Below are positions 5,546 through 62,894 of a DNA stretch of 62,894 nt, piece after piece (the first letter of the stretch is position 1; the number at the start of each line of letters is the position of its first letter). The stretch is taken from contig JBJOLU010000227.1 of NCBI GenBank assembly GCA_046052705.1, positions 1-62,894 of the forward strand, read 5' to 3'. The DNA comes from Bacteroidota bacterium. GTDB lineage: Bacteria > Bacteroidota > Ignavibacteria > Kapaibacteriales > NICIL-2. The notes under the pieces are model-generated. The model saw only the letters and a program-made list of their open reading frames with translations. It was not told where the DNA came from and made no database searches. Made by a program: the position numbers and the translations under genes.

Positions 5546-8500
5546 GATCCCCTAATAATTTTCAACAATTCATCAATTGAGCCGCCTTCGGCCATTTTCG
5601 GTTTATATACGTTCTCAAGCAAATTTGTGCTGAACTGATAGGGCGTGATATTGCCTACTAACGGCAACGGAATCTCTGGCTGTTCCTTCTGCTGACCAGC
5701 GAGCCCTAGAATTGACAACAAGTTACCGAAATTAGCCTGTTGCTGCGCTTGCTGTATCTGTCTGTTGGTTGCCGACTGCGACAACGCTTGATTGATCGCG
5801 ATGCCAGCAAACCCCGGACCGAGGATATCGCGCAATTCTTTGAGAATGTCTGCACTTGTTCCGCCACCGATACCCGTTCCGGGCCCTGTGCCTGTGCCAG
5901 TCCCAGTACCTGTTCCGCCTCCAGTTCCACCGCCTGTGCCACCTGTGCCGCCGGTCCCAGTTCCACCTCCACCAATACCGCCGCCACCTGTACCTGTGTC
6001 AATTCCGGTGCCTCCAAGACCACCACCCGGCGTGCCACCAGGCTCTCCGCCTGTAGTACCTCCGGGAGTACCCCCCGGCGTGCCACCTGTAGTACCTCCG
6101 GGCTCTCCACCTGTTGTACCCCCCGGCTCTCCGCCTGTTGTACCACCTGTTATACCTCCGGGCGTGCCGCCCGTTGTATCGCCTGTCGTGCCGCCTGTCG
6201 TACCACCTCCCGGTGTAGGTGGAGGTGTAGGTGTTGTGCCTGCACCGCCTGATCCGCTACCAGTCTCCGGTGTTGGCGTGGGCACCTGTGGCGTTACCGG
6301 CGTGATGTTTGTATCGCCTGCACCCGGAGTTGGTGTAGGGGTAGGTGTCGGAGTTGTCGCTTCACCAATCGACCCTCCTCCCGGCGTAGGCGTAACCGGA
6401 GTTGGCGTAGGCGTTTCCGGAGTTGGTTGTGTCGTGCCTTCTCCACCCGTGGGCTTTTCCTCTGTCGGAGGAGTCGGAGGTTGCGTTGGCTGCTCAGGCA
6501 AAGGAGGCAGTTGCGGTTCTTTGCCTTCCAATATGTCCCGCAGCGCCTGAGATATAGCTTGCTGTTCTTTCTGTTGTTCGTTCAGAGCTTCTGACAGGGA
6601 TACCGTTTCCTCACCGTCTTTATCTTGGGTTTCTGAAACTTCCCGTCCAATATACGTTATGCCTCCCTTACCATCTGGAACCAGTATATTGAGATTGCCA
6701 TATAACGGCTCTTTTCCGACGAGGTTATATGCCTCCGCATTGGTCAACTTTCGGCCCGACGCATTTACATAGCCGGAGAACCCATTCGGATTCGTTCTGT
6801 TTGCCATCACCTGAGAATCGGTCAAAAATTCTCTTACTTTTTGCGAGTTATATTCTTGACGGATAGTTTCCCTAGCCACCGGCGCTATCCCAGCAGCTTC
6901 TGCCGACGGAATGATCGCTCCCAACGCGCTTTCCGCGATGCCCTTGATACGGTCCGTTAATGACTGTTCTGAGTACCTGCCCGCGATGCTATTGATCTGA
7001 TCTTTGGTCAGAGTAATGCCTAGCGCCTTCGCTTCTTTGGTAATGTCTGCTGCCGACGGGATAGTGCCGATTGTTCGTGGGAACAGCCCGGACAGCGCAT
7101 TCTTGGCATCTGCCAACAATCCAGATGTTGACACCTCTGAAATTGATTTCAGCGTTTCTGGATCAATCTTGGCGCCAGTCGTTGTGACAAACGCACCGGA
7201 CTCATCCTTTGTAACGCCAAATCCACCGACCTTGGCTTTGTATTCCAACACGTCGCGCATGGCGGCTATAAACTCTGGCGAGTTTCTACCGTATTTAGCA
7301 CCAACTTGATTGGCATACAGCGTCTTTTCATCTGCCAGTTGTTTCTCAACTGACCGAAGTTGCGACAAATACTCCTGCGCCCGTCTCTGCGCTACTTCTG
7401 GTGTCTCGCCGCGATCCGTGAATTTTTTAATCAGACTATCCGTAAGCGTTTGCTCTCGGACGAGCTTCGTTTGTTGATCTTTCTTTGATACCTCACCAAG
7501 TTTTTGCAAGTCTGCTGTGACTTTAGCTTGGTCATTTTGACCGATGAGTTTCTGTCTTTGGGCATCCGTCAGCGTTATCCCGGTTTCTTGCTCTAGCCGT
7601 GCGAGTTCGCTTTGAGTTACGGTTTTCTGGTCGTACCACTGCGCCAGAAACACGTCTGGGTTTGCCGAATCTTTTAATCCTTTGGCAACTTCATTTACTT
7701 CTTTACCCGACGCCGAATACCCAACGGATTTTAGTGCCTCATCCGCACCAGCCGCGTAGTTTGTAGGCAACTTTGCCTTGACGCCTTGCTCCAAAAAGTG
7801 AGCAAACGGGTCGCCCGCCACGTCATTCAGCTTGGCATAGGCTTCGGCATCAAACTTTGGATCAATGCTTTTGACCTGTTCGCGTTCTTTGGCGCCAACA
7901 GGCGTGATGGTGTCGCCGTAAGCTTTGATCGCGGCTCGTTTATCGGCTAAGTCCTCCCAACCCTGTTGCCGGGCTTGGTAATCCGCTGCCGTAATCTTGG
8001 GCCCGTACTGACTCTGCGCCGCCTGTTGTTGCGCGTAGTCTGCCCACCCTGCTTTTTGCGCGTTGGCATCATTGACCTGAAGCTGAATACCTGCCTTGGC
8101 TTGGTTGAGCAGTGATTTTTGCAGCACTGAATCCAATGGTTTGCCTTGGATGCCGCCTACGATCAAGTCCTTCGCAAACTGACGTTGCGACGCTGACAGC
8201 TTCATCGACTTGCCGAGCGTTTCCAGCGCCGATTCAGCGAATACTTCAGTCGCAAAGTTCTTAATCGTTTGTCCAACGTCCAACTTACCGCCTTGTGCCG
8301 CTCCCAGTGCGGCACTCGTAATGGCCTTCTGCTGCGTTGCGCTTAGATTTTTCCAGCCCGGTGCTGATTGCAGAGCAAGCGGAACCGCCGTGTTGATAAA
8401 CGCGTTTTTAGTAGCTGCTGGAATATCCTGATTCAACAGCATGGCACGAGTACCCTCTTTGGATACCGCCGTTGCAATCTGTTGCAATCCCTTAAATCCC

Positions 8501-10999: not shown

Positions 11000-12874
11000 T
11001 TACCGCCTGCCGTCAGGTCTGAGGTCGATTCGCGGGGCACCCAACTGCCATTGCACACCCAGCCCAGTGCTCTCCATCTTGATCGACATCTGCCTGCCAC
11101 GTACCCGCGTAAATACTTGGCCGGTGAATTGTTCAATAGGCACTGTTGCCGTACGCGTTACTGCCGCAGAGTTACTACCCCCGACTGACGCGGGGTTGTT
11201 ATAGCCCGAGCCCGAGTTGGCGAGAGGCAACAGATACATGGTTGCGCTTGGACTCACGGCCGTCGATCCTCGGAATGTCACGTCCGGCAGCATGCGGTAG
11301 ATGAACGCAAAGTTATGCCCGTCGTCGATGTCGAATTCCGACGAGGTAATGTAGGCGTTGATGGGCGCGGGCACGCCAGTGGAATTGTCATCCACTCCAG
11401 TTTCGTGATTCACCAAGTTGTTCAGGTATGTCGCTGCAACTGGGTAAGTGCGCAACCCGCTGTCGATCCAAGCTGTGCGCGCCATGGTGCCGTAGTACCA
11501 GACATCTTCGAGGTAGTTGTACACCACGTACCGGTCGATTGTCGTAGAGTTGGCGCTGCAATAAAACCACCAGACTTCGTTGAAGCCTTCGTTTGTACTG
11601 GCAAAGACTTGGCCGCGCTGCGCCGCGTTGAAATCGCTGAATACGAACTGCTTCAAATCGCAACGTAAAGTGTCGACCCGGCCGTCGTATTTGTAAAACT
11701 TGTCGATGCCCATCCAATACACTACGCCGCTGCCGATTGCTCGGGCGTTTTGTCCGGCCAAGGATAGGTTGTCGCCCAGAAGCTGTGTCCCCCAGACTTC
11801 GGGTGCGCCTAGGTACTGCAACGCGTAGAGCGCCGAATCAGTCCAGACGAGAATTTCCTGACGAGTTTGCAGGCACGTCACAATCTCTGACCCATGCGAC
11901 AACCGCACACTACCTGCTTGGTTCGTGGCAGCAGGCGTCCAATTCACCGCGCTTTCCTGATCTGACCAACGAATCAGCATCGGATCATAAGTCGATGACA
12001 AATAATCTGTCGTTCCGAAAGCGAATACAAACCGGCTCGTGTCTGACACAAACACAAAGTTGGCTTGCGTGGGTACGTTAGACGCCCCGGATAAGGAAGA
12101 CAGCGCGACGCCTCGGGTTGTAAGACCTGCCGATGCGTCCCAATAGTAGATGCCACCACCGCGCGGATTGAAGATCAGGTCCTCGCCAAAATTGTTTTGG
12201 CTCCACACACGCAAGCTGTCTGGCAACGCGGACGCCGTGATGCCCCACGAACCACTGCCCCATGTTCCCGCGCCCCAGCCGGTTAGTGGTACTGTAAAAG
12301 CTGGGCCTGTTGGAATCTGATACGCTGCCGACACGGACGCCCCGCCGCCGGGCGACCCCGCCACGTCTGTGGCATTAGCCGTAGCCGCTACGGTAATCGT
12401 GTAGCTGTTACTGTTGATTACGGTAACTTGATATTCCTGATTCAGCACTGATGCACTGATGTTCCCCCCTAGCCCGACTGCGCTACTGAAGGTCACAAAG
12501 TCTCCTGTGGAACAGCCATGCGCCGTGTGCGCGACGGTAATTACCGATGAATTCAGTGTGGCCGTGAAAGGATTATTCAGCGTAACTGTGGCCCGGATCG
12601 GCGTGATGTCGTAATACGCCCCGCCCGACTCGATATAAAACTTGAGATTAGTGCCGACGCCCATCAGGTTCAAATTAGCGAGCGTGACCCAATTCCACAG
12701 GCTCCGGCACACCCCTAAATAGGTGTTGGCGGAAATACGCTCCCACCCACCGATCTTTTCGGGCGTACCTTGGCGAAACCGGATTTTATCTCCGTCATAC
12801 CAGCCGCCCTCCGCCGTATATCGCGTTCCTTCTCTCCACATGCCCGGTCGCAACTGTAACTTCTTAAGAGCCAT
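11000..12874 (-). CDS. Virion structural protein (putative tail tubular/nozzle protein)
   Basis: 624-aa ORF. The N-terminus MALKKLQLRPGMWREGTRYTAEGGWYDGDKIRFRQGTPEKIGGWERI is a motif I recall from podovirus tail proteins; position supports the call. Confidence 0.45.
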   Translation of the reverse strand: MALKKLQLRPGMWREGTRYTAEGGWYDGDKIRFRQGTPEKIGGWERISANTYLGVCRSLWNWVTLANLNLMGVGTNLKFYIESGGAYYDITPIRATVTLNNPFTATLNSSVITVAHTAHGCSTGDFVTFSSAVGLGGNISASVLNQEYQVTVINSNSYTITVAATANATDVAGSPGGGASVSAAYQIPTGPAFTVPLTGWGAGTWGSGSWGITASALPDSLRVWSQNNFGEDLIFNPRGGGIYYWDASAGLTTRGVALSSLSGASNVPTQANFVFVSDTSRFVFAFGTTDYLSSTYDPMLIRWSDQESAVNWTPAATNQAGSVRLSHGSEIVTCLQTRQEILVWTDSALYALQYLGAPEVWGTQLLGDNLSLAGQNARAIGSGVVYWMGIDKFYKYDGRVDTLRCDLKQFVFSDFNAAQRGQVFASTNEGFNEVWWFYCSANSTTIDRYVVYNYLEDVWYYGTMARTAWIDSGLRTYPVAATYLNNLVNHETGVDDNSTGVPAPINAYITSSEFDIDDGHNFAFIYRMLPDVTFRGSTAVSPSATMYLLPLANSGSGYNNPASVGGSNSAAVTRTATVPIEQFTGQVFTRVRGRQMSIKMESTGLGVQWQLGAPRIDLRPDGRR

Positions 12875-13628
12875 TTGTTTTCTCCGCCCTTTTTTTGTCC
12901 CAATATGCTTTTTTAGCCGCGCTCAACCGGTCGCGCGTTTCTTGACTTACATTGCCTTTAATCTCTTTCAGCTTGGCAATGGTTTCTGCGCTGTGCTTGC
13001 GTCCGGTCATAATTTCCCGCAGTTTTTGTTTTGCCTCTTCGGGGTACGGCCCGCGTTTTGACCCGGTCTGTCGCGCCGTAACCGCTTGGCCGAACTCTGG
13101 AGGTCGCTTCCATTTCGAGGATGCTTCGGCGATTTTCCGTTTCCACTCTTCAGAAAACGGCGCCCTTTTAACGCCAAGTTTTGATTGCCTAATTTTTTCT
13201 TTGGTTTCTTGGGACGTTGGCTGGCGGCTTTCTGCACTCCAGCGTCTTAATGCCGCCAAATGTTCGGCAGAAAGTTTTTTGCCTTTGTTTGCTGCGCTGA
13301 TTTTTTGGCGCACTTCTTGGGTGTAGACAACAGCGCCATTCACGTTGAGGTTGTAACACGCTATTCCCTCATCTAACATTTTACGGATTAATAATGACTC
13401 AAATTTCCGACAATCGTCATATGATCCGATAGCAATAATTTGTCGTGAAAAATCTTGAGGTCGAATTTTATACTGCGCTTTAACATGCTTTGATGAGCAA
13501 ATGTAACCATCATCTACGCTCCCCTTGTGGAAGCCGACGTATAGCTTGTCACTTTCTTTATCCGTCCAGCAATAAACAAAACAATTTTGCTCTTTGGTTT
13601 GGAAGTTTTGCATGTTTTTTGCCGGCAC
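12864..13628 (-). CDS. Free-standing GIY-YIG homing endonuclease with NUMOD3-type repeats
   Basis: N-terminal FVYCWTDKESDKLYVGFHKG (GIY-YIG-like); C-terminal repeated S/T-x-E-x-K-x-K-I/L units (NUMOD3-like); GTG start preceded by AAGGGGG; wedged between endolysin and tail genes. Confidence 0.75.
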   Translation of the reverse strand: MPAKNMQNFQTKEQNCFVYCWTDKESDKLYVGFHKGSVDDGYICSSKHVKAQYKIRPQDFSRQIIAIGSYDDCRKFESLLIRKMLDEGIACYNLNVNGAVVYTQEVRQKISAANKGKKLSAEHLAALRRWSAESRQPTSQETKEKIRQSKLGVKRAPFSEEWKRKIAEASSKWKRPPEFGQAVTARQTGSKRGPYPEEAKQKLREIMTGRKHSAETIAKLKEIKGNVSQETRDRLSAAKKAYWDKKRAEKTNGS

Positions 13629-33917: not shown

Positions 33918-36422
33918 TCAATAATATGCCTTTTTTCGCCGCCATCCGATTTCCTCGTCAGGCTCGTCGGTCTGTAACCGCAAAAATCCACCCTGCCTAA
34001 ACCGGATGAGGGCCTGCACCGAGCTATCCAATAAGTCATCGTGCTCCGCATTAGGAAATCTCGCCATTTCCTCAATTACTTCATCAGCCCACCTCGCGTC
34101 CGGTGCCCATACTTTACCCGAGGCAAACAAATCTGTAACCGAATTGAGACGCGCAAATTTGTCATTACCGCGCGATGGCGTATATTCACTAACCGGAATA
34201 CCCATACGCCTTAACTCAAATATCAACGGCGCCCCAGCTGCCTTCGCTTCAATAATAAATGCGTCAGGCTCCCATTCTTTCCACGAATTAAATGCTGCTT
34301 GTTTTAATTCCGGGAACTCCCATTTATCCTTAAACGCATCCAGCAATATGATATTCACATCATTGGGGTCTTCGTTAAGATTAAAAATACCCCAAGTCGT
34401 ACAGGCCGAATAGTCCGACCTCTCGCCTTTGGTAAAGGCTGTATCCCAAGACTGGATAATGAATTCACAATTAGGCGGACGATCTTTATTCCATATACGC
34501 CACCACTCACGCTTAATAATCGCACCCGCTTCGCCAGTCGGCTGTTGCTGGTACTGTGCGTTCCACTTGTAGGAAGGTAACTCTTCTTTAAGAGCAAGAA
34601 GCTCTTCGAGACTCCAGAACTCAGGCCATAGAGGTGCGCCCGATGGAAGGATGGCCGGTAGCTCGATCACTTCCCATTCGTCCTCGTGTCGTGAGTTCCT
34701 AATGATCTTGCCCGTTAAGTCCTTGTCACTCCAGCGAGTCATAATTACGACAATGGCCGCCCCTGGCTGGAGACGTTGCCGTGGTCCGGAGGTGTACCAT
34801 TCATACACGCCGTCAAATACGGTCGGGTCGCCTTGGGCTAACTTGGCCTCTTGCTCGCTGTGCGGGTCATCGATGATAAGAAGGTCAGCACCTTTACCTG
34901 TCACCGTACCTCCAACGCCGATAGCAAAATAGCTACCCCCACCCGAGGTATCCCAGCGTCCAGCCGCTTTGCTATCAGCCCGAAGATCAACACTCGGAAA
35001 CACTTTCTTATAGTGATCCGACCCAACCAGGTTTCGAACCTTCCGTCCGAAGCCAACAGCCAATTCCGCCGTGTTTGAACATTGGATAACTTTCTTCTCC
35101 GGGTACTTTCCTAAAAACCAAGCCGGCAAAAGAAACGAGCCAAACTCGGATTTGGTGTTGTGCGTACAAATGTAGCCTTCTCCGGCCAAAAACAAACCGT
35201 CTTGACGAGCTACCTTGATACATTGCGTACTGCCAGTTTCGTTTAGTTTTTCTACTTTGATGTACCTTCCGAATGCTGGCTTGTACTTGATCGTCCGATT
35301 TTCTTTCCTGTCTAAATGAGCAATGTTGGAAGCATAAAAGCTAATCCTCCATGTCTTGCCGTAGCTTTTGTCTCCAATTTTTGCCTCGGTAGAGATCAAT
35401 GAGTTCTTAATCCCAAGGCTGGCTAGAAGTTCGCGCACTTGATTGATGAGACTCAAGTTGCTTTGCGCGAAGAAACATTGACCTGCTTTTGACACGTTGC
35501 CATCCGTGTCCATCAGACCTTTGAGCAACCATCTACGTTGATCTACGCTACCCATCAGATACGCCTGCGGGATGTGTTTGTTCCCTAACACACCAAGATC
35601 GCGGAGTTTTTCTTTTAGACCCAAAACTCCGAACGTCATCGGGGTAGATTGGGCAGTCGTTCTGTACCCAAGCGCCTCGAACATTTGCCGAATGCCAACC
35701 TGATCGTCATCGTGACAGGTAATTACCCCTTGATTCTTGTGCCCATCACCGAGCCATACACCAAGAACATAGGGTGCTATCGGCAAGGATTGCCGTTCGT
35801 AAATGACGGGATTCACGTCAGGCAATCTTGGCAATCGTGGATTTTTGACATGCCCCGCCAAGAAGTGTGTGCTCCCACCTCTACCCATTCTCAGCACTTC
35901 ACCGTTCTGCCTACGCCATAACTCTTCAGTCGTGAAGTCGTGATAGACATCGTGCTTTCGGTGCAACCTAACCGTCCAAAGATGCTCGCCATCAACATCC
36001 AGGCTGAATCCATCATCCGTAGTCACGCGATAAATGTCTCTATCGTGAAACACTTCTGATTTTCCAATTACCTCTGTTGGAATCCCATCAGGCCCGAAAA
36101 CATAATCGCCAACCAATAAGTCGGCCATCGTTTTCCATCCGTTCAATGTTGGTATCTTCATATCTAACCTTATCGCGTGCCGAGGGGCCATGTTGATGAT
36201 GAGTCTCTTCACCTTCCCCGCCGCGATTTCCTCGAACTTCTTCGCCATCAAAGCATGGTGCCGACCGTGGATAAACGACGGCCACATCATCTTCACAAAC
36301 GCCATGAAGTCCGCTTGCGCCTTCTCCCGCTCCAGCGCCTCTTTATATGCGCCTACCTGAGCCAACAACTTCTGTTGCTCATTCTCAGGCAGCTTAGAAA
36401 TCAACGCGGCCAAGTCGCTCAT
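33918..36422 (-). CDS. terL: Terminase large subunit interrupted by a 340-aa intein
   Basis: Exteins: INMAPRH|TKSE (P-loop), LLIIDDPH (Walker B), C-terminal RNase-H-like nuclease motifs (QSWDTAF, IIEAKAAG, EHDDLLDS); 494 aa after intein removal. Confidence 0.9.
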   Translation of the reverse strand: MSDLAALISKLPENEQQKLLAQVGAYKEALEREKAQADFMAFVKMMWPSFIHGRHHALMAKKFEEIAAGKVKRLIINMAPRHAIRLDMKIPTLNGWKTMADLLVGDYVFGPDGIPTEVIGKSEVFHDRDIYRVTTDDGFSLDVDGEHLWTVRLHRKHDVYHDFTTEELWRRQNGEVLRMGRGGSTHFLAGHVKNPRLPRLPDVNPVIYERQSLPIAPYVLGVWLGDGHKNQGVITCHDDDQVGIRQMFEALGYRTTAQSTPMTFGVLGLKEKLRDLGVLGNKHIPQAYLMGSVDQRRWLLKGLMDTDGNVSKAGQCFFAQSNLSLINQVRELLASLGIKNSLISTEAKIGDKSYGKTWRISFYASNIAHLDRKENRTIKYKPAFGRYIKVEKLNETGSTQCIKVARQDGLFLAGEGYICTHNTKSEFGSFLLPAWFLGKYPEKKVIQCSNTAELAVGFGRKVRNLVGSDHYKKVFPSVDLRADSKAAGRWDTSGGGSYFAIGVGGTVTGKGADLLIIDDPHSEQEAKLAQGDPTVFDGVYEWYTSGPRQRLQPGAAIVVIMTRWSDKDLTGKIIRNSRHEDEWEVIELPAILPSGAPLWPEFWSLEELLALKEELPSYKWNAQYQQQPTGEAGAIIKREWWRIWNKDRPPNCEFIIQSWDTAFTKGERSDYSACTTWGIFNLNEDPNDVNIILLDAFKDKWEFPELKQAAFNSWKEWEPDAFIIEAKAAGAPLIFELRRMGIPVSEYTPSRGNDKFARLNSVTDLFASGKVWAPDARWADEVIEEMARFPNAEHDDLLDSSVQALIRFRQGGFLRLQTDEPDEEIGWRRKKAYY
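35157..36176 (-). mobile_element. Intein (residues 83-422 of TerL) with LAGLIDADG homing-endonuclease domain; Ala1, class-3-like WCT signature
   Basis: Starts AIRLDMKIPTLNGWKTMADLLVGDYV (block A with Ala1), DGEHLW (block B His+Trp), LGVWLGDG and LLKGLMDTDG (LAGLIDADG x2), TQCIKV (block F Cys), GYICTHN|T (block G, +1 Thr). Confidence 0.85.
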
Positions 36423-39757: not shown

Positions 39758-40273
39758 ATGGAAACACCATCTGTATACGTCGGCACCTATGCCAAATATA
39801 ACTCGGGCAGTATCAAGGGCGCGTGGATCAATCTCGAAGACTACGCAGGAGACCGCGAGGGCTTCTATGCCGCATGCGCCGAGCTGCATTCGGACGAAGC
39901 TGACCCTGAATTTATGTTTCAAGATTTCCAATGTTTCCCGCGTGAGTTTTACTCTGAAAGCGGCCTGCCCGAAGAATTGTTTGAATGGCTGGAGCTTGAT
40001 GACTATGACCGCGAGTTGCTGGAAAAGTACGCTGAGGCAACCGGGTACGACATCACCGAACTAACGATAGAGAATGCCCGTGAAGCATTCTGGGGCCGGT
40101 TCGATTCTGGCGCGGATGCTGCCCAGCAGATTGCAGAAGAGTCTGGCGCGGTTCCGAAAGACTTACCGTGCTGGATCGTCATTGACTGGCAAGATTCGTG
40201 GGACAGTAACCTTCGTCATGATTATTGCACGGCTGGTCGGCATGGCGATCTGTGGATTTTCTCGAATCGCTGA
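39758..40273 (+). CDS. ardA: ArdA-type anti-restriction protein (DNA mimic, anti type I R-M)
   Basis: VYVGTYAKYNSGSIKGAWINL ... EADPEFMFQDFQCFPREFYSESG ... acidic; matches ArdA signature from memory. Confidence 0.85.
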   Translation: METPSVYVGTYAKYNSGSIKGAWINLEDYAGDREGFYAACAELHSDEADPEFMFQDFQCFPREFYSESGLPEELFEWLELDDYDRELLEKYAEATGYDITELTIENAREAFWGRFDSGADAAQQIAEESGAVPKDLPCWIVIDWQDSWDSNLRHDYCTAGRHGDLWIFSNR

Positions 40274-50944: not shown

Positions 50945-51241
50945 TCAAATCAACCCCGCCATGCGTTGTTGTACCGCGTGCTCTGCCTCCGCAACTGCGG
51001 CCGTACCCTGTTCCTTCTCCATGATCCTCTTGAAGTGCTGCCACTTCGATGCCTCCCATTGAAGATGAGCCATCATGGGCTGCTGGCTCAAGATGATCGC
51101 GTGCTGATGATCCACGATATCCTGCAGCCGACGAACTTCATCCTGTAGCTTGTCACATTTCTGCCGCAACTCTCCGTATGTAAAGTTACGCTCTGGCTTC
51201 GACAGAACAGGGATGTTAGGTACTGACGGGATGCGGTTCAT
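50945..51241 (-). CDS. First gene of leftward early cluster, coiled-coil (98 aa)
   Basis: GGAGAG SD; ORF. Confidence 0.55.
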   Translation of the reverse strand: MNRIPSVPNIPVLSKPERNFTYGELRQKCDKLQDEVRRLQDIVDHQHAIILSQQPMMAHLQWEASKWQHFKRIMEKEQGTAAVAEAEHAVQQRMAGLI

Positions 51242-51345
51242 ACAGACTCTCCAAGTTCATGCCCCGTGGCATGTGTTGTAATGAGTAGCATGCTAACAGG
51301 TAGGAACACAGTAACAATAGTGCACTGTGGCACTCAGTACTTCCC

Positions 51346-51475
51346 CCAACACGGCTGGCGACTGGCTATCTGGCTCACCGCATCCGAAGAATACCTCTAG
51401 CGCCAGGACTTCGGACTATTGATGGGCTTACCAAGATTTCGCGCTATCTTAGAGTCCAATCGCCATGCGTGTTGG
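51346..51475 (-). ncRNA. Structured RNA candidate, copy U1 (130 nt, Y-shaped, 5 helices); family not recognised
   Basis: CCAACACG...CGTGTTGG closing stem; helices covary with copy U2; wobble pairs are G.U only on minus strand. Confidence 0.6.
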
Positions 51476-51476
51476 T

Positions 51477-51588
51477 TGTTGATGACGGGATTCAAACCCG
51501 CAACCGTCCCCTGCCGAGGCCGCTCTATCTTTCGTCTGCCGACTAGCTGGTTTCAATATATGCCAGCTTTCAGTTGAGCTACACCAAC
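51477..51588 (-). ncRNA. tRNA-like element / degenerate tRNA (112 nt)
   Basis: Acceptor GTTGGTG/CATCAAC (one G.U), U8, T-arm GCGGG-TTTGAAT-CCCGT. Between them there are ~45 extra nt, a 6-bp stem AGCTGG/CCAGCT with a 12-nt loop, and no canonical anticodon loop. The T-loop has U where C56 is expected. Confidence 0.45.
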
Positions 51589-51706
51589 ACGGCTGAGTAC
51601 TGGCTATCTGGTCAGTTTCATTCGAAGTTTCCTAGGACTGTCGGAATTATTAACTGGCTTACCAAGGGTTCGCGCCCCCTCGGACTCCAATACTCATGCG
51701 TGTTGG
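51584..51706 (-). ncRNA. Structured RNA candidate, copy U2 (123 nt), paralogue of U1
   Basis: Same architecture as U1 with compensatory substitutions; its 3' strand overlaps the tRNA-like acceptor stem by 5 nt. Confidence 0.6.
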
Positions 51707-51943
51707 ATGTTGGCGAAATAGGACTTTCTTAACGCGCCATGACAGCGCCCCGCCCCGTAACGCCAACAAGGAAGCAAGCCAGAAGCCACGAATTCTATCC
51801 CCTGTAGTTGAGGATACTCCTGACTTGCTTTCCTGTTAGCCCCCGTCTCTCCGGGGTGTCCGTTGTCATCTGTGGATCACACGCCTCGCCATGGTTCGAG
51901 TCCGACAACATGACATATTGTAGTACGTTAACCCACAAGTCTA

Positions 51944-52366
51944 CTACCCGTTGATGATCGACCTGATATGACTTAACTGCTCAGGACTGACTTCAACTCT
52001 AGCCCGTAGAACGTGTTCGCATTCCTCCCACGGCGGACACGAACAACCCGTGTCAGGTAAAGAGAAGTCCGTTCGTGAAGTCATCGGGCCAACAATCAGA
52101 CTCGCGTTCTTCTGTGCCAGTCTGTTCATGGCGTTCTCATAAGCCTTCTTAGACTTCACTTGCTTACTTCGTTTAGCCGTCTTGGTCTGTGCTGTAGGCT
52201 GAGTGTTCTTAACAGGCCGCTTAAGATGAGCAGGCATCCACTTCATGAACGGCCACAACTCCACAGCGTCGATCACATACCAAGTCTTTTTGATTGCATC
52301 CCATCTAGCGCCTAATCTTTTGGCACTCTCTTTTTCAGCATACGGTACGTTTAAGTCGACTCGCAT
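51944..52366 (-). CDS. DUF5710-like domain protein (140 aa; start trimmed to MRVDLNVPY)
   Basis: LNVPYAEKESAKRLGARWDAIKKTWYV matches the L-x-VP-x-x-EK-x-x-AK-x-LGARWD-x3-K-x-WY motif from memory; basic linker; C-terminal CSCPPWEECEH. Confidence 0.55.
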   Translation of the reverse strand: MRVDLNVPYAEKESAKRLGARWDAIKKTWYVIDAVELWPFMKWMPAHLKRPVKNTQPTAQTKTAKRSKQVKSKKAYENAMNRLAQKNASLIVGPMTSRTDFSLPDTGCSCPPWEECEHVLRARVEVSPEQLSHIRSIING

Positions 52367-52800
52367 ATTCAGTCTCGTCAGGATCACGTGGCATGCGGGA
52401 TAGGAAACGCATAGGAACTCTGGGCAAAACCTTCCCAAGGGCAGCCTACGAAGGCAACCCTCGGGATGTATCCAATGGCTCATGCTAGATTAGGTATCCG
52501 CTGAGTCACCCCATCGCTCAACCCCGGCCTAACCCGTGTTGAGTCGCAGTCTTTTGCCTATCAGGAGGCTCACACCGAGCACTGCGCCACTCGATACTTT
52601 GAGTGCATCCCGCTCTTGCTGGTCTGGTGCGATTGTTCCAGCTTTAAGCTACTGCCCACCGTTTCCATACGTCCGTCCTAAGGTACTACCCTTTCGCCGC
52701 CGCCATGACGCTTTACGGTTACTCAGTTCCTACCCGAGGTATCGGGACTTAAGTGACTCTTAAACAGAAGCCGAGTTGAAGCGAGCCAGAAAAGCAAAAA

Positions 52801-52932
52801 CCCCAGAGTGCTTAAGTGGGGCATGGCCCTGGCATGGGCAACCAACAATGCGATAGGAACAACGCACCACTGATTACACATGCCCCACTTGAACATTCTG
52901 GGGTAAGTTATTGTTCCTATAGACATTGTTGG
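52801..52932 (+). repeat. Two interleaved long inverted repeats (A/A' ~25 bp, B/B' ~21 bp): pseudoknot or mutually exclusive hairpins
   Basis: A 52801-52825 CCCCAGAGTGCTTAAGTGGGGCATG vs A' 52879-52903 CATGCCCCACTTGAACATTCTGGGG; B 52842-52862 CCAACAATGCGATAGGAACAA vs B' 52911-52932 TTGTTCCTATAGACATTGTTGG; order is A-B-A'-B'. Confidence 0.6.
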
Positions 52933-52972
52933 GATGCCGCCCAACAGGAGAAATCTTGCCTAACCTCACGTA

Positions 52973-53002
52973 TTACGTCAAGAGGGTGACGTAACTTTTT
53001 TT
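52973..53002 (+). terminator. Terminator-like hairpin + T7 on the plus strand
   Basis: TTACGTCA-agaggg-TGACGTAA-C-TTTTTTT; no plus-strand CDS upstream. Confidence 0.45.
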
Positions 53003-53005
53003 ACT

Positions 53006-53045
53006 TCTATGAGTCTCTATGGGAGTTCTATAAGGTTCTATGAGG
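53006..53045. repeat. Four iteron-like direct repeats TCTATRRG phased 10-11 bp
   Basis: CTAT at 53007, 53017, 53028, 53038 (TTCTATGAG, CTCTATGGG, TTCTATAAG, TTCTATGAG); adjacent to T7 tract; between convergent hairpins. Confidence 0.6.
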
Positions 53046-53353: not shown

Positions 53354-53428
53354 TGGTGCTCCCTCTAGGAATCGAACCCAGATAAGCTGATTACAAATCA
53401 GCCGTAATAACCGTTATACGAAGGGAGC
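53354..53428 (-). tRNA. tRNA-Thr (anticodon UGU), CCA encoded
   Basis: GCTCCCT acceptor / AGGGAGC, D-arm with A14 G18 G19 A21, anticodon arm GCTGA-TTTGTAA-TCAGC, T-arm CTGGG-TTCGATT-CCTAG, ACCA end; 75 nt. Confidence 0.9.
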
Positions 53429-58943: not shown

Positions 58944-59206
58944 ATAATCAGCTAACCAATAAACAACGGGAGCACTTGGCAAGAGTCAAGTCGCTCCCTT
59001 GTTCTGTATGTGATGCCTATCCACCTTCGGAGGCCCACCACATCAATCAAGGCGATCAATACACCTGTGTCGCCTTATGTGCCGACTGCCACCGAGGTAG
59101 CCTAAACGGACTCCATGGGCAGCGCCGGATGTGGAAAGTTAAAAAGATGGATGAATTGTCGGCGCTCAACGTCACCATCGAGCGCCTTCTGGACTCACTC
59201 CTTTAG
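58940..59206 (+). CDS. HNH-type nuclease resembling P1 Ref (RecA-dependent nuclease) family
   Basis: LPCSVCDAYPPSEAHHI ... ALCADCHRGSLNGLHG. Confidence 0.55.
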   Translation: MNNQLTNKQREHLARVKSLPCSVCDAYPPSEAHHINQGDQYTCVALCADCHRGSLNGLHGQRRMWKVKKMDELSALNVTIERLLDSLL

Positions 59207-62200
59207 AGCCACCCGCAGTTCTTCAGCCTGACGTGCGATCTCTGCGATGATGAGTTTCGCACGATCAATCTCTTGCCTCTTTTCTGCTCCCGTCATATTC
59301 GGATTGGCCGTGATGATGCTGATGTACTTCCGCATCCTCGACATGTCATCCGATGCTTTATCGTAGAACTTAGCCAGCTTGATCTTATCGGCCTGGTCGA
59401 TGGCGATCTTCTGCGCTTTCTCAATTTCTCCCAGTGTTGCATAGTGGCGCATGTCCGCCATGGCTTGTTGAATCTTCTGGTTATTGTCGTAGAACGAAGT
59501 AACAAACTTCGATTGAGTCGCCGGAAGTTCTTTGACGAAACCCATTGAGAACGTATCCGCGTACTTCATGTCTGGATACGCGCCCTTGGAGAACGGCATC
59601 GCTGCGTAATGGGCTGTGGAGGTAGCCATGGCTCCCAGCCATCCAAAGTATCCCTTGATGAGATATTCAATCTGGACGGGAGACAGTTCCGCTTTCTCCG
59701 TGGTCACGGTTGCGATGGCCTTACTTACCCCGCCAAGCCCTTTGCCGATCCAAGAAGTCGAATCTGCAACACGTTCTTGTTTGGACAATTTCTCCATGCC
59801 CGCCGTTTCAATCGGCGCACCGGTAAAGCTGTCTTTGTTGGCGTAGATATCTAGAACAGGCTTGAACATCTGCGGGATAGGATTAATCGCAAAGGTATCG
59901 GATAGCATCCGTGTCATCGCCTCACCGAACACTTTGCCTTCTGCCCCTTGATCGACAATCTGCTCCAGCGATCTTTCGACCAACGTCCCGAACGCACCCA
60001 GTTCGAACGGTTTGGGGATACGGAAGGCATGTTCCATCCCAGGGAATTTTATCCACCAGAAGTTGTCACGGTCCCACTGTTCGCGCTTCTTGAACTCTTC
60101 GTCATCCTTAAAGGCATAGTACAACGCGGCAGAGGCCAAACCTACTCCGGCCAGAACAATCGCAAATCTTTCGCCCTTTTTCTTGTCGGACTCACTGATT
60201 TCTTTGCCCGTCAGACTGCTGTAAATGAGCCTATAGGTCGGAGTAATCCCGTCACGACCCAATTTGTACAGCCCTTGGACTCGCGCATTCAAGAACGGAA
60301 TCACCATCGTCAAACGACGGAATGCCGGGAACGAACCATGCAGGGTGAAATCCATCAGGTCTTTGGCATGGAACGACGCTTCCAAGTGCGACATCCCTTT
60401 GGCTCGGGCCTGTTGATAGATCGCCAGACGGTTGGCGTTTTCCATCTTGTTGCCCCACTCTTCGTACTTGTTGTACAGGTACTTGAGCCCGTTCTTGATC
60501 TTCTCTGGGGAGTCCAGAATGGTATTGTCTGGGACACCGGCTTTGACGAGACGCTTGATATTCTCGGACATCCCGCCTTCCATCGCGGCCCCGAACTTCA
60601 TCATGCCACCACCCGCCAAGGCGCCGATGTAATTCGGGTCTTTCGGGTCGTAGAAGTTCATGCCTTCGATAGCATTCATCACCGGGTTCTTTTTGATGTC
60701 TGCGATCGAGATAGCCGACACCGAATCGCGGATCAAGTTACGAACCCGGAATGCTGGAGAAATGGTCACGCCGAACTGAAGCATGTTCTTGAAGTTCTTG
60801 GCGACATCCAGCCACTTTCCTTGTGGCCCTAACCAGGTGATGCCAGCGATGGAATCCAAGAGGAGCGGATCATTAACTTCGTAGTACACCGGCATCCCGT
60901 CTTTGATTACGCTGACTGTGCCTGGCTTCTTGGTTGTGTGCCCCGGCAACAACTTACCGAGTACTTCTCTGCCATCTTTCGTTACCTTGTAGACAAGCCC
61001 GTTTTCGTACTCATACTGCGCTTTCATACTTGGACGCACTACATCCAGCTTTGACTGCTCAGCGGCCTGCAATACTTTGGTAGCTGCGATGTTCTTCATC
61101 GAAGCTGAAAGGATGTGAGACCAGTTCTGTACGATGTTCTGCATCAGATCGCCAAAGGCCAACTCTTTATTGCCCTTCAATTCTTTGCTGAAGAATTGAT
61201 CGGTCAGCTTCTCCCCCGACGTGGGAACGAGTTCGCCTTCCTCTGTGATCTTGTACATAGGAACGTAGTACAAGTCGCTGCTGAATCTTTTGTATCCTTC
61301 TTTGTCGATGATTCCTGCTTCCTTGGCAACATCAAGCACGGACTTGTTTAGCGCGTTCATCTTGCGCCGCACTTCGTTGTAGACCTCTGCACGCGGCCGA
61401 CCGCCTACATCGCCTTCAATCATTTCATCCTTAGCCTGCAACGCCTGGCTGGAGAATGAACGCTTTTCTTCTGGCAGATTTGCATCACGGCTCATCGCCA
61501 TCCAGACCAAGAACCGATCAACCTCTTTCCCTAAAGGTCTGAACGCTTCGTAAAGTCCTTCCGTGTTGGGTTTGATATTCAGCGCACCGCCGTCATTGAA
61601 CACCTGTCCATGAAACAGAAGCCCTTCCACTGCACCATCCACGGTGTTGGACATCCGCGCCAGCATGTATCCTTCGTCGCTGTACTTTTTGATCGCGCGA
61701 TACTTATCTAAGAATCCTTGTGCCATGCGCTCCCAGAATTTTTCACGCATGGAATTGATGCGATCGACTACGGTCTCTGGCTTAGGATTAAATCGACGCT
61801 GGATTTCCGCTTTGAGAGCATCGCTCTTAATGTCGCTGAACGATTCTGTTTCGATCTTTTCTTTCGGCGGCAGAACTTTGGCTTCGACCTTCCGGGCGAT
61901 TTCTTCTACTTTGCCCGGAGCACGGAGGCTCTTTGCCTCGCTTGTTGCGCGCCGCTCACCCGTTTTCAACTCACCGCGCTCAACCTTGCCGAAAATTTGT
62001 TCCGGCGATTCCACCTTGGTGAGCGCCGACTTGATTGCTTGGAACAGATTACGCAAGCGCGTCAGCAACGACTGGATCAATCCTGACGGAGCTTTCTTGG
62101 CATCGAAGTCAGCGAAAGCATCGGCCACCGCTTCTTCGGTGATCTTCTCCATGTCGCCGTTGTACTCACGCATGTAGGCGTCGTAGCGAGACTCTTCTCC

Positions 62201-62894
62201 GGCTCTCAGTGGCTTTCCATCTACGTCACGTTGCTTCAGATACTGGTCAATCCACTTGTCCTTAGCCATCTTGGACAGCGTTTTCCACTGGGCATCGGTG
62301 AAGAAGCCTAGCTCCCGGAGAGCATGGATAGCTTCATGGCGCAGATCACGGATGGGGTTGGCAGAGTCCGACGCGATCTTGATAAGTTGCTGTGCGTAGG
62401 AGCCTGCTTCCTTCAAGCCATCCACAAGGTTCAGACCAACATCTTTCAGGCCGAACTTGTTGAGCGTGGTGCGGAGGGTTTGTTCGAAGTCTGCGACTTG
62501 TTGTGCACGCTCTCCACCGAGGGATTTCTTTTCTTTCGGTTGAATTGGCTTGAGAAATGGAGCTGGAACTGCGGGCTGTTGTCCAAATAGATATTCCTGC
62601 ATCGATGCAATACTTGCCGGAGGGATGGTTCCTCCTTTTCCCGGTGTTTCACTTTTGAATGCCTGTGAGTTGAACCGGTCGCCTCTTGATTCTGCTTCGG
62701 CAATGGCATTGTCAATGAGCCACTGTGTTGCGTATTTTTCGCTTTTCTGTTTTGGGTATGGCGTCGTAAATCTGCCTGAAGAAGTAGAAAACACATCCCC
62801 GCCACGAATAGGCTGTTTATCCACAGGCCGTCCCTCGTAATCAAGTACCCGAGGTTCAAGAGCTTGTTGGACTTCTGGAGCTTTCCGCTCAATA
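59195..62894 (-). CDS. C-terminal part of the wrap-around ~1901-aa virion protein (unique portion 59195..62773 = 1192 aa + stop; track ORF 59195..62824 starts at an internal GTG)
   Basis: Frame remains open upstream of 62824 to the window end and joins 1..2127. It is large, helical and polyvalent-protein-like. Its stop overlaps the convergent gene 58940..59206 by 12 nt. Confidence 0.8.
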   Translation of the reverse strand, partial: IERKAPEVQQALEPRVLDYEGRPVDKQPIRGGDVFSTSSGRFTTPYPKQKSEKYATQWLIDNAIAEAESRGDRFNSQAFKSETPGKGGTIPPASIASMQEYLFGQQPAVPAPFLKPIQPKEKKSLGGERAQQVADFEQTLRTTLNKFGLKDVGLNLVDGLKEAGSYAQQLIKIASDSANPIRDLRHEAIHALRELGFFTDAQWKTLSKMAKDKWIDQYLKQRDVDGKPLRAGEESRYDAYMREYNGDMEKITEEAVADAFADFDAKKAPSGLIQSLLTRLRNLFQAIKSALTKVESPEQIFGKVERGELKTGERRATSEAKSLRAPGKVEEIARKVEAKVLPPKEKIETESFSDIKSDALKAEIQRRFNPKPETVVDRINSMREKFWERMAQGFLDKYRAIKKYSDEGYMLARMSNTVDGAVEGLLFHGQVFNDGGALNIKPNTEGLYEAFRPLGKEVDRFLVWMAMSRDANLPEEKRSFSSQALQAKDEMIEGDVGGRPRAEVYNEVRRKMNALNKSVLDVAKEAGIIDKEGYKRFSSDLYYVPMYKITEEGELVPTSGEKLTDQFFSKELKGNKELAFGDLMQNIVQNWSHILSASMKNIAATKVLQAAEQSKLDVVRPSMKAQYEYENGLVYKVTKDGREVLGKLLPGHTTKKPGTVSVIKDGMPVYYEVNDPLLLDSIAGITWLGPQGKWLDVAKNFKNMLQFGVTISPAFRVRNLIRDSVSAISIADIKKNPVMNAIEGMNFYDPKDPNYIGALAGGGMMKFGAAMEGGMSENIKRLVKAGVPDNTILDSPEKIKNGLKYLYNKYEEWGNKMENANRLAIYQQARAKGMSHLEASFHAKDLMDFTLHGSFPAFRRLTMVIPFLNARVQGLYKLGRDGITPTYRLIYSSLTGKEISESDKKKGERFAIVLAGVGLASAALYYAFKDDEEFKKREQWDRDNFWWIKFPGMEHAFRIPKPFELGAFGTLVERSLEQIVDQGAEGKVFGEAMTRMLSDTFAINPIPQMFKPVLDIYANKDSFTGAPIETAGMEKLSKQERVADSTSWIGKGLGGVSKAIATVTTEKAELSPVQIEYLIKGYFGWLGAMATSTAHYAAMPFSKGAYPDMKYADTFSMGFVKELPATQSKFVTSFYDNNQKIQQAMADMRHYATLGEIEKAQKIAIDQADKIKLAKFYDKASDDMSRMRKYISIITANPNMTGAEKRQEIDRAKLIIAEIARQAEELRVALKE
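62774..62894. repeat. Terminal direct duplication, copy 2 (identical to 1..121)
   Basis: Direct comparison. Confidence 0.95.

Follow-up and report, generated by a model that had tools for sequence, protein, structure and literature searches.

Organization of the noncoding region

Within the window (the whole 62,894-nt stretch of DNA analyzed here), positions 51242 to 51943 of the minus strand form a 700-nt noncoding gap between phage genes, with a DUF5710 gene upstream and a gene for a 98-aa protein downstream. The first-pass annotation had described two paralogous Y-shaped RNA candidates flanking a tRNA-like element in this gap. Both copies are present on the minus strand where it had placed them, U1 at 51475->51346 (130 nt) and U2 at 51706->51584 (123 nt), and they belong to a larger noncoding region, which it had offered as one possibility, the parts of which are as follows in the direction of reading.

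51857 to 51943, minus strand: 5' leader of the noncoding region, following the stop codon of the DUF5710 gene; structure uncertain, any promoter putative
51841 to 51856, minus strand: minihelix CCCCGGAGAGACGGGG, in which a 5-bp stem carries a purine-rich hexaloop; a G lies between it and U3
51763 to 51839, minus strand: U3, a degenerate third unit (CUAACAGG...CCUUGUUGG), read from the sequence and present in the global fold
51707 to 51768, minus strand: small acceptor-type element (UGUUGGCG...CGCCAACA), with a U between it and the CCA of U2
51584 to 51706, minus strand: U2, a clamp (P1, 2x2 loop, P2) with a three-way-junction cargo, class M1
51476 to 51589, minus strand: tRNA-like acceptor-type element between U2 and U1, with an Rfam tRNA match
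51346 to 51475, minus strand: U1, a clamp with a three-way-junction cargo, class M1, of a subtype common to loci L064, L068, and L097
51242 to 51345, minus strand: 3' tail, extending to the ribosome-binding site and start codon of the 98-aa gene

The minihelix and U3, just upstream of U2 and U1, had been overlooked in the first reading. The leader holds no credible open reading frame, and a promoter scan of it found none; in L064 and L069, the stretch preceding the minihelix matches the last ~25 to 30 nt of this leader. The minihelix itself recurs in other arrays: the same hairpin (CYYCGGAAAGACGRGG) ends 0 to 1 nt before units in L053/56, L059, L064 (twice), L065 (twice), and L069, as do related forms in L068 (GCCGGAAAGACGGC) and L097 (CCUUGGAAAGACAGGG), and in L051 a copy comes after the last unit instead. 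U3 combines a ~20-bp clamp-like stem, lacking the 2x2 loop, with a small hairpin cargo, and its segment gives a weak match, confined to the clamp, to the U1/U2 covariance model. The small acceptor-type element overlaps U3, its 5' strand sharing bases with the 3' strand of U3, and over 60 nt it has 96.7% identity with the linker at the same position in the L068 array. In the 3' tail we noted a weak terminator-like hairpin (51340->51322). A 9-bp helix that would enclose the whole array, pairing 51299-51291 (CCUGUUAGC) with 51840-51832 (GCUAACAGG), was considered and set aside, as chance alone would supply about one pairing of this kind and other loci do not conserve it.

U1 and U2 are structured RNAs

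The Y-shaped elements U1 and U2 are real structured RNAs, and their structures are under selection. On the minus strand, U1 folds with a free energy of -54.1 kcal/mol (z score, -4.64) and U2 with -45.3 kcal/mol (z score, -4.13), and none of 200 shuffled sequences folds as well, while the plus strands fold less well (z scores of -3.4 and -3.5). The two copies had been described as roughly two-thirds identical, in agreement with the 85 of 130 aligned columns (65%) that are the same. RNAfold gives both the same architecture, in which P1, a 2-nt/2-nt loop, and P2 lead into a three-way junction bearing P3 and P4-P5. All five helices proposed in the first-pass annotation are present and shared, but P4 had been drawn too short: it comprises 7 to 8 bp rather than 4 bp, pairing alignment columns 48 to 55 with columns 97 to 104. 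The joining strands that had been listed as conserved, GGUAAGCC, AAUA, and CCAGAUAGCCAGU, are found in both copies. Applied to the window, a covariance model of U1 and U2 recovers these two sites alone, with 153 and 135 bits; no other match exceeds 10.7 bits.

Seven further distinct homologues of this fold, called M1, were found in other viral and metagenome contigs, giving an alignment of nine distinct sequences. In this alignment, 95.6% of cells are paired, compared with 26 to 43% when the 3' partners are slid by 1 to 3 columns, figures that are favored by the alignment having been fitted to the structure of the covariance model; the P4 extension lies outside that model yet still pairs across the alignment. 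Fourteen pairs are changed on both sides, so the compensatory changes first seen between U1 and U2 are real, and none of 500 shuffles reaches the observed covariation score. The units of L052 and L054 differ at only two positions, which together make a single compensatory U-A to C-G change in P4. The stems covary around junction strands that do not vary (AGAUAGCCAG and GGUA[A/G]G), and the P5 loop carries the self-complementary sequence CCUAGG in eight of the nine sequences. In our reading, U1 and U2 represent a single type of cargo, a three-way-junction RNA, in two copies that have diverged.

The first reading had not recognized the RNA family, and no described Rfam family fits U1 or U2. A search of positions 51000 to 52200 with Rfam 15 returned, even at E values up to 10, no family besides tRNA, which matched the central element; the models included YrlA, Y RNA, ROOL, GOLLD, and riboswitches. 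Likewise, the Rfam ribozyme models (hammerhead, twister, twister-sister, pistol, hatchet, hairpin, and HDV-like) gave no match to U1 or U2 at E values up to 10.

A clamp shared by many unrelated RNA units

The outer part of U1 and U2, which we term the clamp, consists of P1 (CCAACACG/CGUGUUGG, 8 bp), a C.C/A.G 2x2 loop, and a 9-bp P2. When used as a probe, this outer stem identified 23 viral loci and 33 metagenome loci (56 in total), containing 61 distinct units of 64 to 149 nt; the viral probe was a 24-base clamp pattern, for which ~0.01 loci are expected by chance, a value scaled from a scan with inner motifs that yielded chance matches only. That scan, with the inner-motif probe GGTAAGCC..CCAGATAGCC in viral contigs, produced 38 matches, all attributable to chance and lacking the structure, and a three-block pattern that added the GCGCGAA loop to the inner motifs produced none. 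The inner motifs are specific to one cargo subtype, and the outer clamp was the productive probe. The interiors of the 61 units fall into 37 classes without detectable similarity to each other, the U1/U2 fold being one of them. At the boundaries of units, the clamp repeats seem to interrupt metagenome assembly.

P1 and the 2x2 loop are near-invariant across the family, a property partly built in by the search pattern. P2 is 92 to 100% paired and covaries, and it contains 73 G·U pairs compared with 2 A·C pairs, in line with the earlier proposal that the RNA is read from the minus strand. P2 pairs at 6.8 of 7 positions within its own unit and at 5.75 of 7 with the neighboring unit; since it pairs better inside its own unit, we rejected a long linker-enclosing stem in which the 3' clamp half of a unit would pair with the 5' half of the unit after it. 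Arrays are intergenic, often lie just upstream of a ribosome-binding site, and are co-oriented with the downstream open reading frame in 32 of 35 cases, the placement expected of a cotranscribed RNA; 28 of 42 consist of one unit only. Their neighbors vary by locus (TerS/TerL, helicases, DNA polymerase A, and a PD-(D/E)XK nuclease among them), and no protein partner is consistently linked to them. Synteny led to seven viral loci with homologues of the downstream 98-aa gene and one with a DUF5710 relative; in the 98-aa-gene loci inspected, the stretch upstream is coding sequence, and the covariance model found no unit in any of the eight loci.

Among 185,579 species genomes, a 19-mer clamp probe hit no more than two short MAG contigs; a Burkholderiales contig among the hits gives the sole hint of a host. 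With so few matches and with abundant structure-preserving changes, the units do not behave as a multicopy MITE carried by host genomes, an origin that the first-pass annotation had allowed for. A BLAST search of 50,697 GenBank phage records gave no match to this region of the window, and a typical unit gave none even at E values up to 10. None of the 61 units belongs to a family in Rfam 15. We found no description of the clamp family in the literature, but it could be among the 8,495 unnamed candidate RNAs that were cataloged from IMG/VR in 2023 (PMC10690425). Judged by sequence alone, the shared clamp with its unrelated interiors defines a large, undescribed family of phage noncoding RNA cassettes. 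The first reading had overlooked the clamp common to the 61 units, their exchange, and the position of CCA at tRNA-like ends.

Units are exchanged as discrete cassettes

Units that are 90 to 100% identical sit in unrelated flanks, and the similarity breaks at the first C of CCAACACG on one side and at, or 1 to 3 nt past, the last G of CGUGUUGG on the other. The L054 and L061 arrays differ by exactly one linker and one unit, with a copy of the 3' clamp half on either side. We saw no target-site duplication. The clamp units appear, from these comparisons, to move between unrelated phages as exact, discrete cassettes. The PeSLs of T4-type phages are mobile regulatory cassettes of a related sort, promoter-terminator motifs with stem-loops that flank protein-coding open reading frames (PMC2839356, PMC4122927). 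In both systems, short conserved motifs flank variable modules, which are shuffled, inserted, and deleted between phage genomes, but the conserved clamp halves, unlike PeSLs, pair together as RNA and the modules they enclose are structured noncoding RNAs.

Clamp units abut tRNA-like ends

Units begin with CCA, usually one purine after an acceptor-like helix, which may be a tRNA, a tRNA-like element, or a minihelix, and they end with UGUUGG, which is often also the 5' strand of the next acceptor-like helix. In L060 and L065, respectively, a genuine tRNA-Thr and a genuine tRNA-Leu have their discriminator base exactly 1 nt before the CCA of a unit. A local hairpin ends 0 to 2 nt before CCA in 30 of 60 units, compared with 26% in controls, and by manual reading ~17 further units are preceded by ..ACCAACA-A. 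Of 63 cases, 52 have a purine at position -1 and 46 have U at position +1. Forty-nine linkers contain a CCAACA-like partner downstream of UGUUGG, forming a helix longer than random partners allow. Because P1 and the downstream acceptor-like helix compete for one UGUUGG, the two are mutually exclusive. Among the linkers, only the central element of the window passes an Rfam search at E values up to 1. The single minimal hammerhead in all fetched loci occupies an array slot in L065, with a P1-like stem as its stem I, and cleavage at clamp boundaries is plausible for this reason.

In the window, the element between U2 and U1 is one of these tRNA-like ends. Its 112 nt match the Rfam tRNA model (RF00005) with 31.2 bits at 51588->51477, a small margin above the gathering score of 29. 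It has an acceptor helix (UGUUGGUG/CAUCAACA) and a T-arm (GCGGG-UUUGAAU-CCCGU), carries 46 nt inserted in the D-loop, and has an anticodon arm of 14 nt instead of 17 nt, which is not a normal one; the purine A51476 precedes the CCA of U1. The earlier description of a tRNA-like element between the copies stands as far as the Rfam cut-off goes, but the element cannot be called as a canonical cloverleaf: ARAGORN does not report it at default settings and at thresholds of 70 to 80% gives only forced, contrived intron models. No homologue of it occurs in the other clamp loci. As had been noticed, the element shares 5 nt with U2, GUUGG being common to it and the 3' strand of U2 P1, and the 8-mer thought to permit alternative pairings does allow an alternative acceptor-like helix, which recurs in other arrays. 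We rejected a split tRNA-Ser(GGA) with a 204-nt intron containing U2, proposed by ARAGORN at the 80% threshold only, because its D-arm is poor, its acceptor is mismatched, its 5' half has a perfect partner of its own, and there is no group I intron match. A tmRNA-like reading was also set aside, ARAGORN offering only forced permuted models at the 70% threshold, in which no tag could be identified.

A candidate RNA operon with tRNA-type punctuation

The reading that we favor, with a probability of about 0.45, is that positions 51242 to 51943 are a noncoding RNA operon in which exchangeable cassettes are set off by punctuation for processing of the tRNA type by the host. The array would be cotranscribed with the downstream genes and cut by host enzymes at tRNA-style punctuation marks, with RNase P cutting 5' of UGUUGG and 3' trimming halting at CCA, and RNase III might also cut in the clamp. 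These cuts would release nuclease-protected small RNAs, and the mutually exclusive pairings of P1 and the acceptor helices might set the order in which they are made. The repeated clamp halves may in addition serve as short homologies for the gain, loss, and swapping of cassettes between phages. Processing punctuated by tRNAs is a feature of the MHV68 TMERs (in which a viral tRNA-like element is joined to pre-miRNA hairpins), of plant mitochondrial t-elements, and of the mitochondrial punctuation model. As in those systems, acceptor-like purine-CCA helices in the arrays abut stem-closed RNAs in one transcription unit, and genuine tRNAs can replace the mimics. The arrays differ from them in their sequence-conserved clamp with interchangeable cargo, in having CCA inside the neighboring helix, and in their bacterial host, and cleavage of the arrays is only inferred. 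Several observations speak against the punctuated operon as a full account. Most linkers are not recognized as tRNAs, and P1 cannot coexist with the acceptor-like helix that draws on its UGUUGG. When P1 is formed, CCA is base-paired, so that RNase P recognition of the upstream element would be hindered, not helped; and because 28 of the 42 arrays hold a single unit, punctuating a long array is not the whole story.

Several features of the clamp recall elements that work as DNA. If its halves were imperfect inverted repeats that fold in single-stranded DNA and act as recombination sites (attC- or transposon-end-like), the interior would be passenger DNA, and the exact cassette boundaries at the ends of the inverted repeats, the arrangement in arrays, and the indels bounded by repeats would follow. 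An integron attC site likewise has an outer box, an unpaired spacer, an inner box, and a variable terminal structure, which the 8-bp and 9-bp boxes and the 64- to 149-nt length of the units recall, and P1 contains AAC...GTT. As with attC, conservation is limited to the base. The match to the attC cores (RYYYAAC/GTTRRRY) is partial: CCAAC...GTTGG is always present, while the flanking positions fit in some units only, AUCCAAC before U2 agreeing with the consensus and AACCAAC before U1 not. Integrons also differ in having an integrase and in cassettes that carry open reading frames, whereas the clamp cassettes carry none; the open reading frames scanned across the window yielded no integrase, transposase, or reverse transcriptase, and no protein consistently accompanies arrays elsewhere. 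The phages that carry the units seem to be lytic (no integrase found), and in bacterial genomes the units are nearly absent, as the two matches among 185,579 species genomes attest; they leave no visible target-site duplication. Their interiors show RNA-type structural selection, with conserved junction strands and compensatory changes that are unexpected for passenger DNA, and they start at the CCA of real tRNAs, an RNA-level landmark. The G·U over A·C asymmetry fits RNA too, though a specific folded DNA strand would give an equal bias. We consider a DNA-level element quite improbable. A somewhat better, though still unlikely, alternative is that the clamps are processing or stabilizer hairpins of the RNase III type, in which a ~20-bp stem with an internal loop is cut once, so that transcripts are separated and a protective hairpin is left, and the tRNA-like contexts are incidental. 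Phage T7 sites such as R1.1 are intergenic hairpins with a small internal loop, and the clamp resembles R1.1 by analogy: 8 bp, the 2x2 loop, and 9 bp would make about two helical turns in an intergenic hairpin, repeated in a phage. The clamp has the ~20-bp stem, internal loop, and intergenic setting of such a site. The co-orientation of arrays with downstream genes, often just before a ribosome-binding site, and the hammerhead in an equivalent slot point the same way. Such sites, however, need no near-invariant sequence across unrelated phages of the kind the clamp has, and the helix-purine-CCA rule, the large conserved multihelix cargos, and the alternative acceptor pairing would all go unexplained.

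The first-pass annotation had proposed decoys, and sponges that mimic acceptor ends and CCA could indeed soak up host factors acting on tRNA, such as tRNA- or CCA-targeting defense toxins, Ro60/Y-RNA-type partners, or processing enzymes. Many tRNA top-half mimics in a purine-CCA context, T-arm-like hairpins in several cargos, fast cassette turnover of the sort typical of arms-race genes, and the presence of other counter-defense genes in the window, e.g., ArdA, are in keeping with this idea. Yet without processing the CCA would stay internal and paired; U1, U2, and many other cargos do not resemble tRNA; and nothing ties the arrays to any defense system. We rate decoys no higher than a DNA-level element. 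The related notion of a Y-RNA-like module is not supported: Pfam and PHROGs searches of the larger open reading frames of the 62.9-kb window found no TROVE/Ro60 gene, and no YrlA or Y RNA model matched in related loci at the gathering score or at E values up to 1. YrlA is a permuted tRNA mimic whose stem binds Ro60, encoded by a gene adjoining that for the RNA, and some Y RNAs are phage encoded (PMC4201824). It shares with the clamp units a long basal stem, a multihelix module that is tRNA-like in some members, and a length of 80 to 150 nt, and it differs from them in its Ro60 gene, its covariance model, and its tRNA likeness, most clamp cargos not being tRNA-like. Invariant junction strands amid covarying stems would also suit ligand- or protein-sensing elements or a new self-cleaving ribozyme, with the three-way-junction core as active site and P1 as switching or cleavage helix. 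The conserved downstream partner of the P1 3' strand recalls riboswitch expression platforms, and a related array holds the hammerhead. We think this very unlikely: no known ribozyme or riboswitch model matches at E values up to 10, no terminator or platform sequestering the ribosome-binding site is evident, and the same clamp and switching sequence occur with 37 dissimilar interior classes, so that the clamp is not specific to the U1/U2 core. Least credible of all is a single large ornate RNA of the ROOL or GOLLD kind that spans the entire ~600-nt region, with U1 and U2 as internal domains. The region is a long noncoding phage stretch 1.6 kb from a tRNA gene, its global fold has a z score of -3.9 with an enclosing 9-bp helix, and the CCUAGG of the P5 loop (in eight of nine M1 sequences) could mediate multimer contacts. 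Against these points, neither ROOL nor GOLLD matches at E values up to 10, the enclosing helix is at about chance level and missing elsewhere, and the domains are found singly and in varied combinations and contexts in other phages.

Implications

Beyond the punctuated operon itself, a broader and rather doubtful possibility is that the family acts as an "RNA integron" without an integrase. A universal clamp would package any structured RNA, plug it into host tRNA processing, and supply the homologies for trading it, and the cargos, U1 and U2 among them, would be a diversifying arsenal of small RNAs directed against host factors or defenses. If the proposed reading is correct, the clamp units represent a widespread, undescribed class of phage noncoding RNA. 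Its organizing principle appears to be new, in that one conserved closing helix serves many unrelated RNAs, with tRNA-like ends and exchange as exact cassettes. The family would add a new layer to the accessory gene content of phages, made of RNA rather than protein, and would give a natural example of the "scaffold plus processing signal" design that engineered tRNA-scaffold and tRNA-gRNA arrays resemble. Moreover, it would offer dozens of new structured RNA folds, the U1/U2 junction included, for functional and structural study.

Phage genome and setting of the RNA array

The window represents a phage genome whose genes lie mostly on the minus strand. Its structural and packaging genes include a large terminase with a LAGLIDADG insertion, portal, capsid protein and SU10-type adaptor proteins, and it further encodes primase, helicase, an Erf annealing protein with a PD-(D/E)XK exonuclease, and ArdA. 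The JGI metagenome contig Ga0485236_0000046 (62,769 bp) is essentially identical to it, and no close relatives were found among 50,697 GenBank phage records. Within the 834-aa large terminase subunit (33918-36422, minus), the LAGLIDADG domain occupies residues 294-350, between the ATPase and nuclease parts, which suggests an intein or homing-endonuclease insertion; a 254-aa ORF amid tail and structural genes (12864-13628, minus) carries NUMOD3 motifs, typical of homing endonucleases. Two products point to a counter-defence repertoire: the ArdA-type anti-restriction protein (39758-40273, plus) and a protein of 1,209 aa (59195-62824, minus) that contains the large polyvalent protein domain LPD38.

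ORF inspection left a gap that holds an array with the full junction pattern, in the following order.

Features of the gap and its array
51944-52483, minus: DUF5710 gene, one border of the gap
51242-51943 (702 nt), neighbours on minus: gap without credible ORFs
51856-51841, minus: minihelix
51839-51763, minus: U3, a degenerate unit
51768-51707, minus: small acceptor-type element, 96.7% identical to its counterpart in L068 (a related contig)
51706-51584, minus: U2
between U2 and U1, minus: tRNA-like element
51475-51346, minus: U1
after U1, minus: tail
50945-51241, minus: 98-aa gene, other border of the gap

The first-pass annotation described U1 and U2 as Y-shaped units of common fold, bracketing a tRNA-like element without a normal anticodon loop, and both descriptions were borne out. 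U1 and U2 are 65% identical. Folded independently, they take one shape, in which P1, a 2x2 loop and P2 lead into a three-way junction that carries P3 and P4-P5; the z-scores are -4.6 and -4.1, respectively, with weaker values on the plus strand. The tRNA-like element scores 31.2 bits with the Rfam tRNA model, barely above the cut-off of 29; its D-loop is enlarged by an insertion of 46 nt, it lacks a proper anticodon arm, and ARAGORN makes no call on it. Apart from this match, Rfam at E<=10 listed only an 11.5-bit plus-strand snoRNA match in 51000-52200, which was taken as chance.

A family of clamped RNA units

When used as probes, the inner conserved motifs of U1 and U2 gave chance matches only, and the RNA is absent from syntenic relatives of the window phage. 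The productive probe was the outer ends, identical in U1 and U2: CCAACACGCATG and CAGCCGTGTTGG separated by 85-115 nt matched 23 viral contigs (~0.01 expected by chance, as scaled from the yield of an earlier chance-only motif scan), and with a gap of 80-110 nt they matched 33 metagenome contigs. Local search of these loci, allowing <=2 mismatches, gave 80 units, 61 of them distinct, of 64-149 nt. A typical unit had no match in cultured phages, and a 19-mer clamp probe matched just 2 short MAG contigs among 185,579 bacterial species, a near absence that rules out the multicopy host MITE considered in the first pass. Contigs L040 (Logan SRR35181309, starting 2 nt into U1), L072 and L090 start or end within a few nt of a unit boundary, probably where assemblies were broken by near-identical cassettes of co-occurring phages; if any sample is a metatranscriptome, such ends may be true RNA ends.

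All units have in common an 8-bp P1, a C.C/A.G 2x2 loop and a 9-bp P2, together called the clamp; the search pattern accounts in part for how little P1 and the loop vary, a bias from which P2 and the interiors are free. The conserved feature is this clamp, not the Y shape. P2 is paired at 92-100%, covaries at pairs 3-7 and 9, and pairs at 6.8 of 7 positions within its own unit versus 5.75 of 7 with the neighbouring unit. It has 73 G.U pairs versus 2 A.C pairs, which indicates that one strand is functional, and a covariance model always scored the unit strand above its opposite. In the window the functional strand is the minus strand, in agreement with the original proposal of a minus-strand RNA.

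A recurrent P1 variant, CCAAGACG, carries an uncompensated G.G mismatch at position 5. It was seen in the first array units of L049, L051, L065, L068, L072, L081 and L084 and in the second unit of L054, mostly in the promoter-proximal unit and often directly after a terminator or -10-like sequence.

Interiors of the units

The interiors enclosed by the clamp (the cargo) make up 37 classes, between which no sequence similarity was detectable, and folded class representatives form three- or four-way junctions, some with T-arm-like hairpins or near-cloverleaves. The Y fold is one such class, M1, in which U1 and U2 are joined by a single sequence from each of L052, L054, L064, L066, L068, L097 and L104, making nine distinct sequences. 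In the M1 alignment, which was fitted to the model, a procedure that favours the structure, 95.6% of cells are paired versus 26-43% with slid partners, 14 pairs are changed on both sides, and no shuffle reaches the covariation score, in line with the compensatory changes first noticed between U1 and U2. Independent support comes from the L052 and L054 units, whose only two differences together make a compensatory U-A to C-G change in P4. The shared fold proposed earlier stands, with P4 extended from 4 bp to 7-8 bp. Practically no variation is seen in the junction strands AGAUAGCCAG and GGUA(A/G)G, and the P5 loop carries self-complementary CCUAGG in eight of the nine sequences; these motifs suggest a specific tertiary fold for U1/U2 RNA, perhaps with RNA-RNA pairing.

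Junctions resemble tRNA ends

Units start with CCA, and in L060 and L065 a genuine tRNA (tRNA-Thr and tRNA-Leu, respectively) has its discriminator base exactly one nt before it. A purine directly precedes CCA in 52 of 63 cases, and U directly follows the unit in 46 of 63. A local hairpin, often the conserved minihelix CYYCGGAAAGACGRGG, ends 0-2 nt upstream of 30 of 60 units versus 26% in controls. By our own reading, ..ACCAACA-A lies upstream of about 17 more units and pairs back to the UGUUGG ending the previous unit, giving an acceptor-like helix; because UGUUGG is shared by both, P1 and this downstream helix are mutually exclusive.

An acceptor-closed element starting UGAAUGCGCAGGCUGAUGCGCA recurs after units (L055, L064, L068, L076, L077, L081, L084, L097 and L103) and ends in a covarying hairpin (GCCGG/CCGGC, GCUGG/CCAGC, GUGGG/CCCAC), with a conserved 9-nt loop, A(G/A)AUCAG(C/U)(A/G), stacked directly on ..CACCAACA-A; it resembles a tRNA top-half mimic and is a family in its own right. 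In L065, a complete minimal type-I hammerhead core (CACGG-CUGAUGA-GUC..GAC-GAAA-CAC GAAA GUG-UC|CCGUG; locus minus strand, 7869-7912 in reverse-complement coordinates) takes a unit slot in a four-unit array, directly after a minihelix, and its stem I is a P1-like stem. Among all fetched loci this is the sole copy; it is not called by Rfam, and it fits the idea of unit boundaries as cleavage points. The window encodes a genuine tRNA-Thr(UGU) with CCA (53354-53428, minus) 1.6 kb upstream of the array, preceded by a hairpin of terminator type (53595-53576) and a site resembling a promoter (53563-53535); unlike the tRNA-Thr of L060, it is not followed by a clamp unit. A second non-coding-looking stretch of ~550 nt (52484-53030, minus), upstream of the DUF5710 gene, has a small hairpin, UGUUGGGCGGCAUCCCAACAA, near 52945 with UGUUGG/CCAACA ends as in the array and a terminator-like hairpin with a U-run near 52810, and may hold further small RNA genes.

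Cassette exchange and interpretation

Units with 90-100% identity to one another turn up in flanks and gene neighbourhoods that are unrelated, with terminase genes, helicases, DNA polymerase A and PD-(D/E)XK nuclease among the array neighbours. On one side similarity ends at the first C of CCAACACG, on the other at the last G of CGUGUUGG or 1-3 nt beyond. Some locus pairs share a unit and its 5' flank and have the downstream element swapped; L054 and L061 differ in one linker and one unit, with a copy of the 3' clamp half at either end; and one ~85-nt module lies within a clamp in L062 and L065 and is an acceptor-closed linker in L049. The repeated clamp halves could plausibly provide short homologies for cassette exchange; the window phage encodes the Erf and exonuclease pair.

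Arrays lie between genes, and in 32 of 35 cases the downstream ORF has the same orientation, from which we infer that they are transcribed together with downstream genes. Host tRNA-type enzymes would then process the transcript at the punctuation marks, with RNase III perhaps cutting in the clamp instead or in addition, and protected small RNAs would be released. We hold this reading tentatively, at a probability of about 0.45. A purely DNA-level recombination site would account for the exact cassette boundaries, but no recombinase was found among the ORFs scanned across the window, the cargo shows RNA-type selection and the tRNA CCA landmark does not fit, so that we consider it unlikely; a decoy function, suggested in the first pass, seems equally doubtful. 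A ribozyme or riboswitch core in M1 has no positive support and is improbable. Still less probable is a single ROOL/GOLLD-like RNA, since the domains occur separately elsewhere and an enclosing helix is at chance level. The Y-RNA-like role also envisaged for U1 and U2 fails, there being no Ro60 among the ORFs scanned across the window.

Overall, U1 and U2 are real and their structure is well supported, and what is shown is a widespread new family of structured RNA modules that share a clamp, have junctions like tRNA ends, are asymmetric between strands and behave as cassettes. The finding opens onto something larger than was first seen in the window; the architecture of the family, too, appears to be new.
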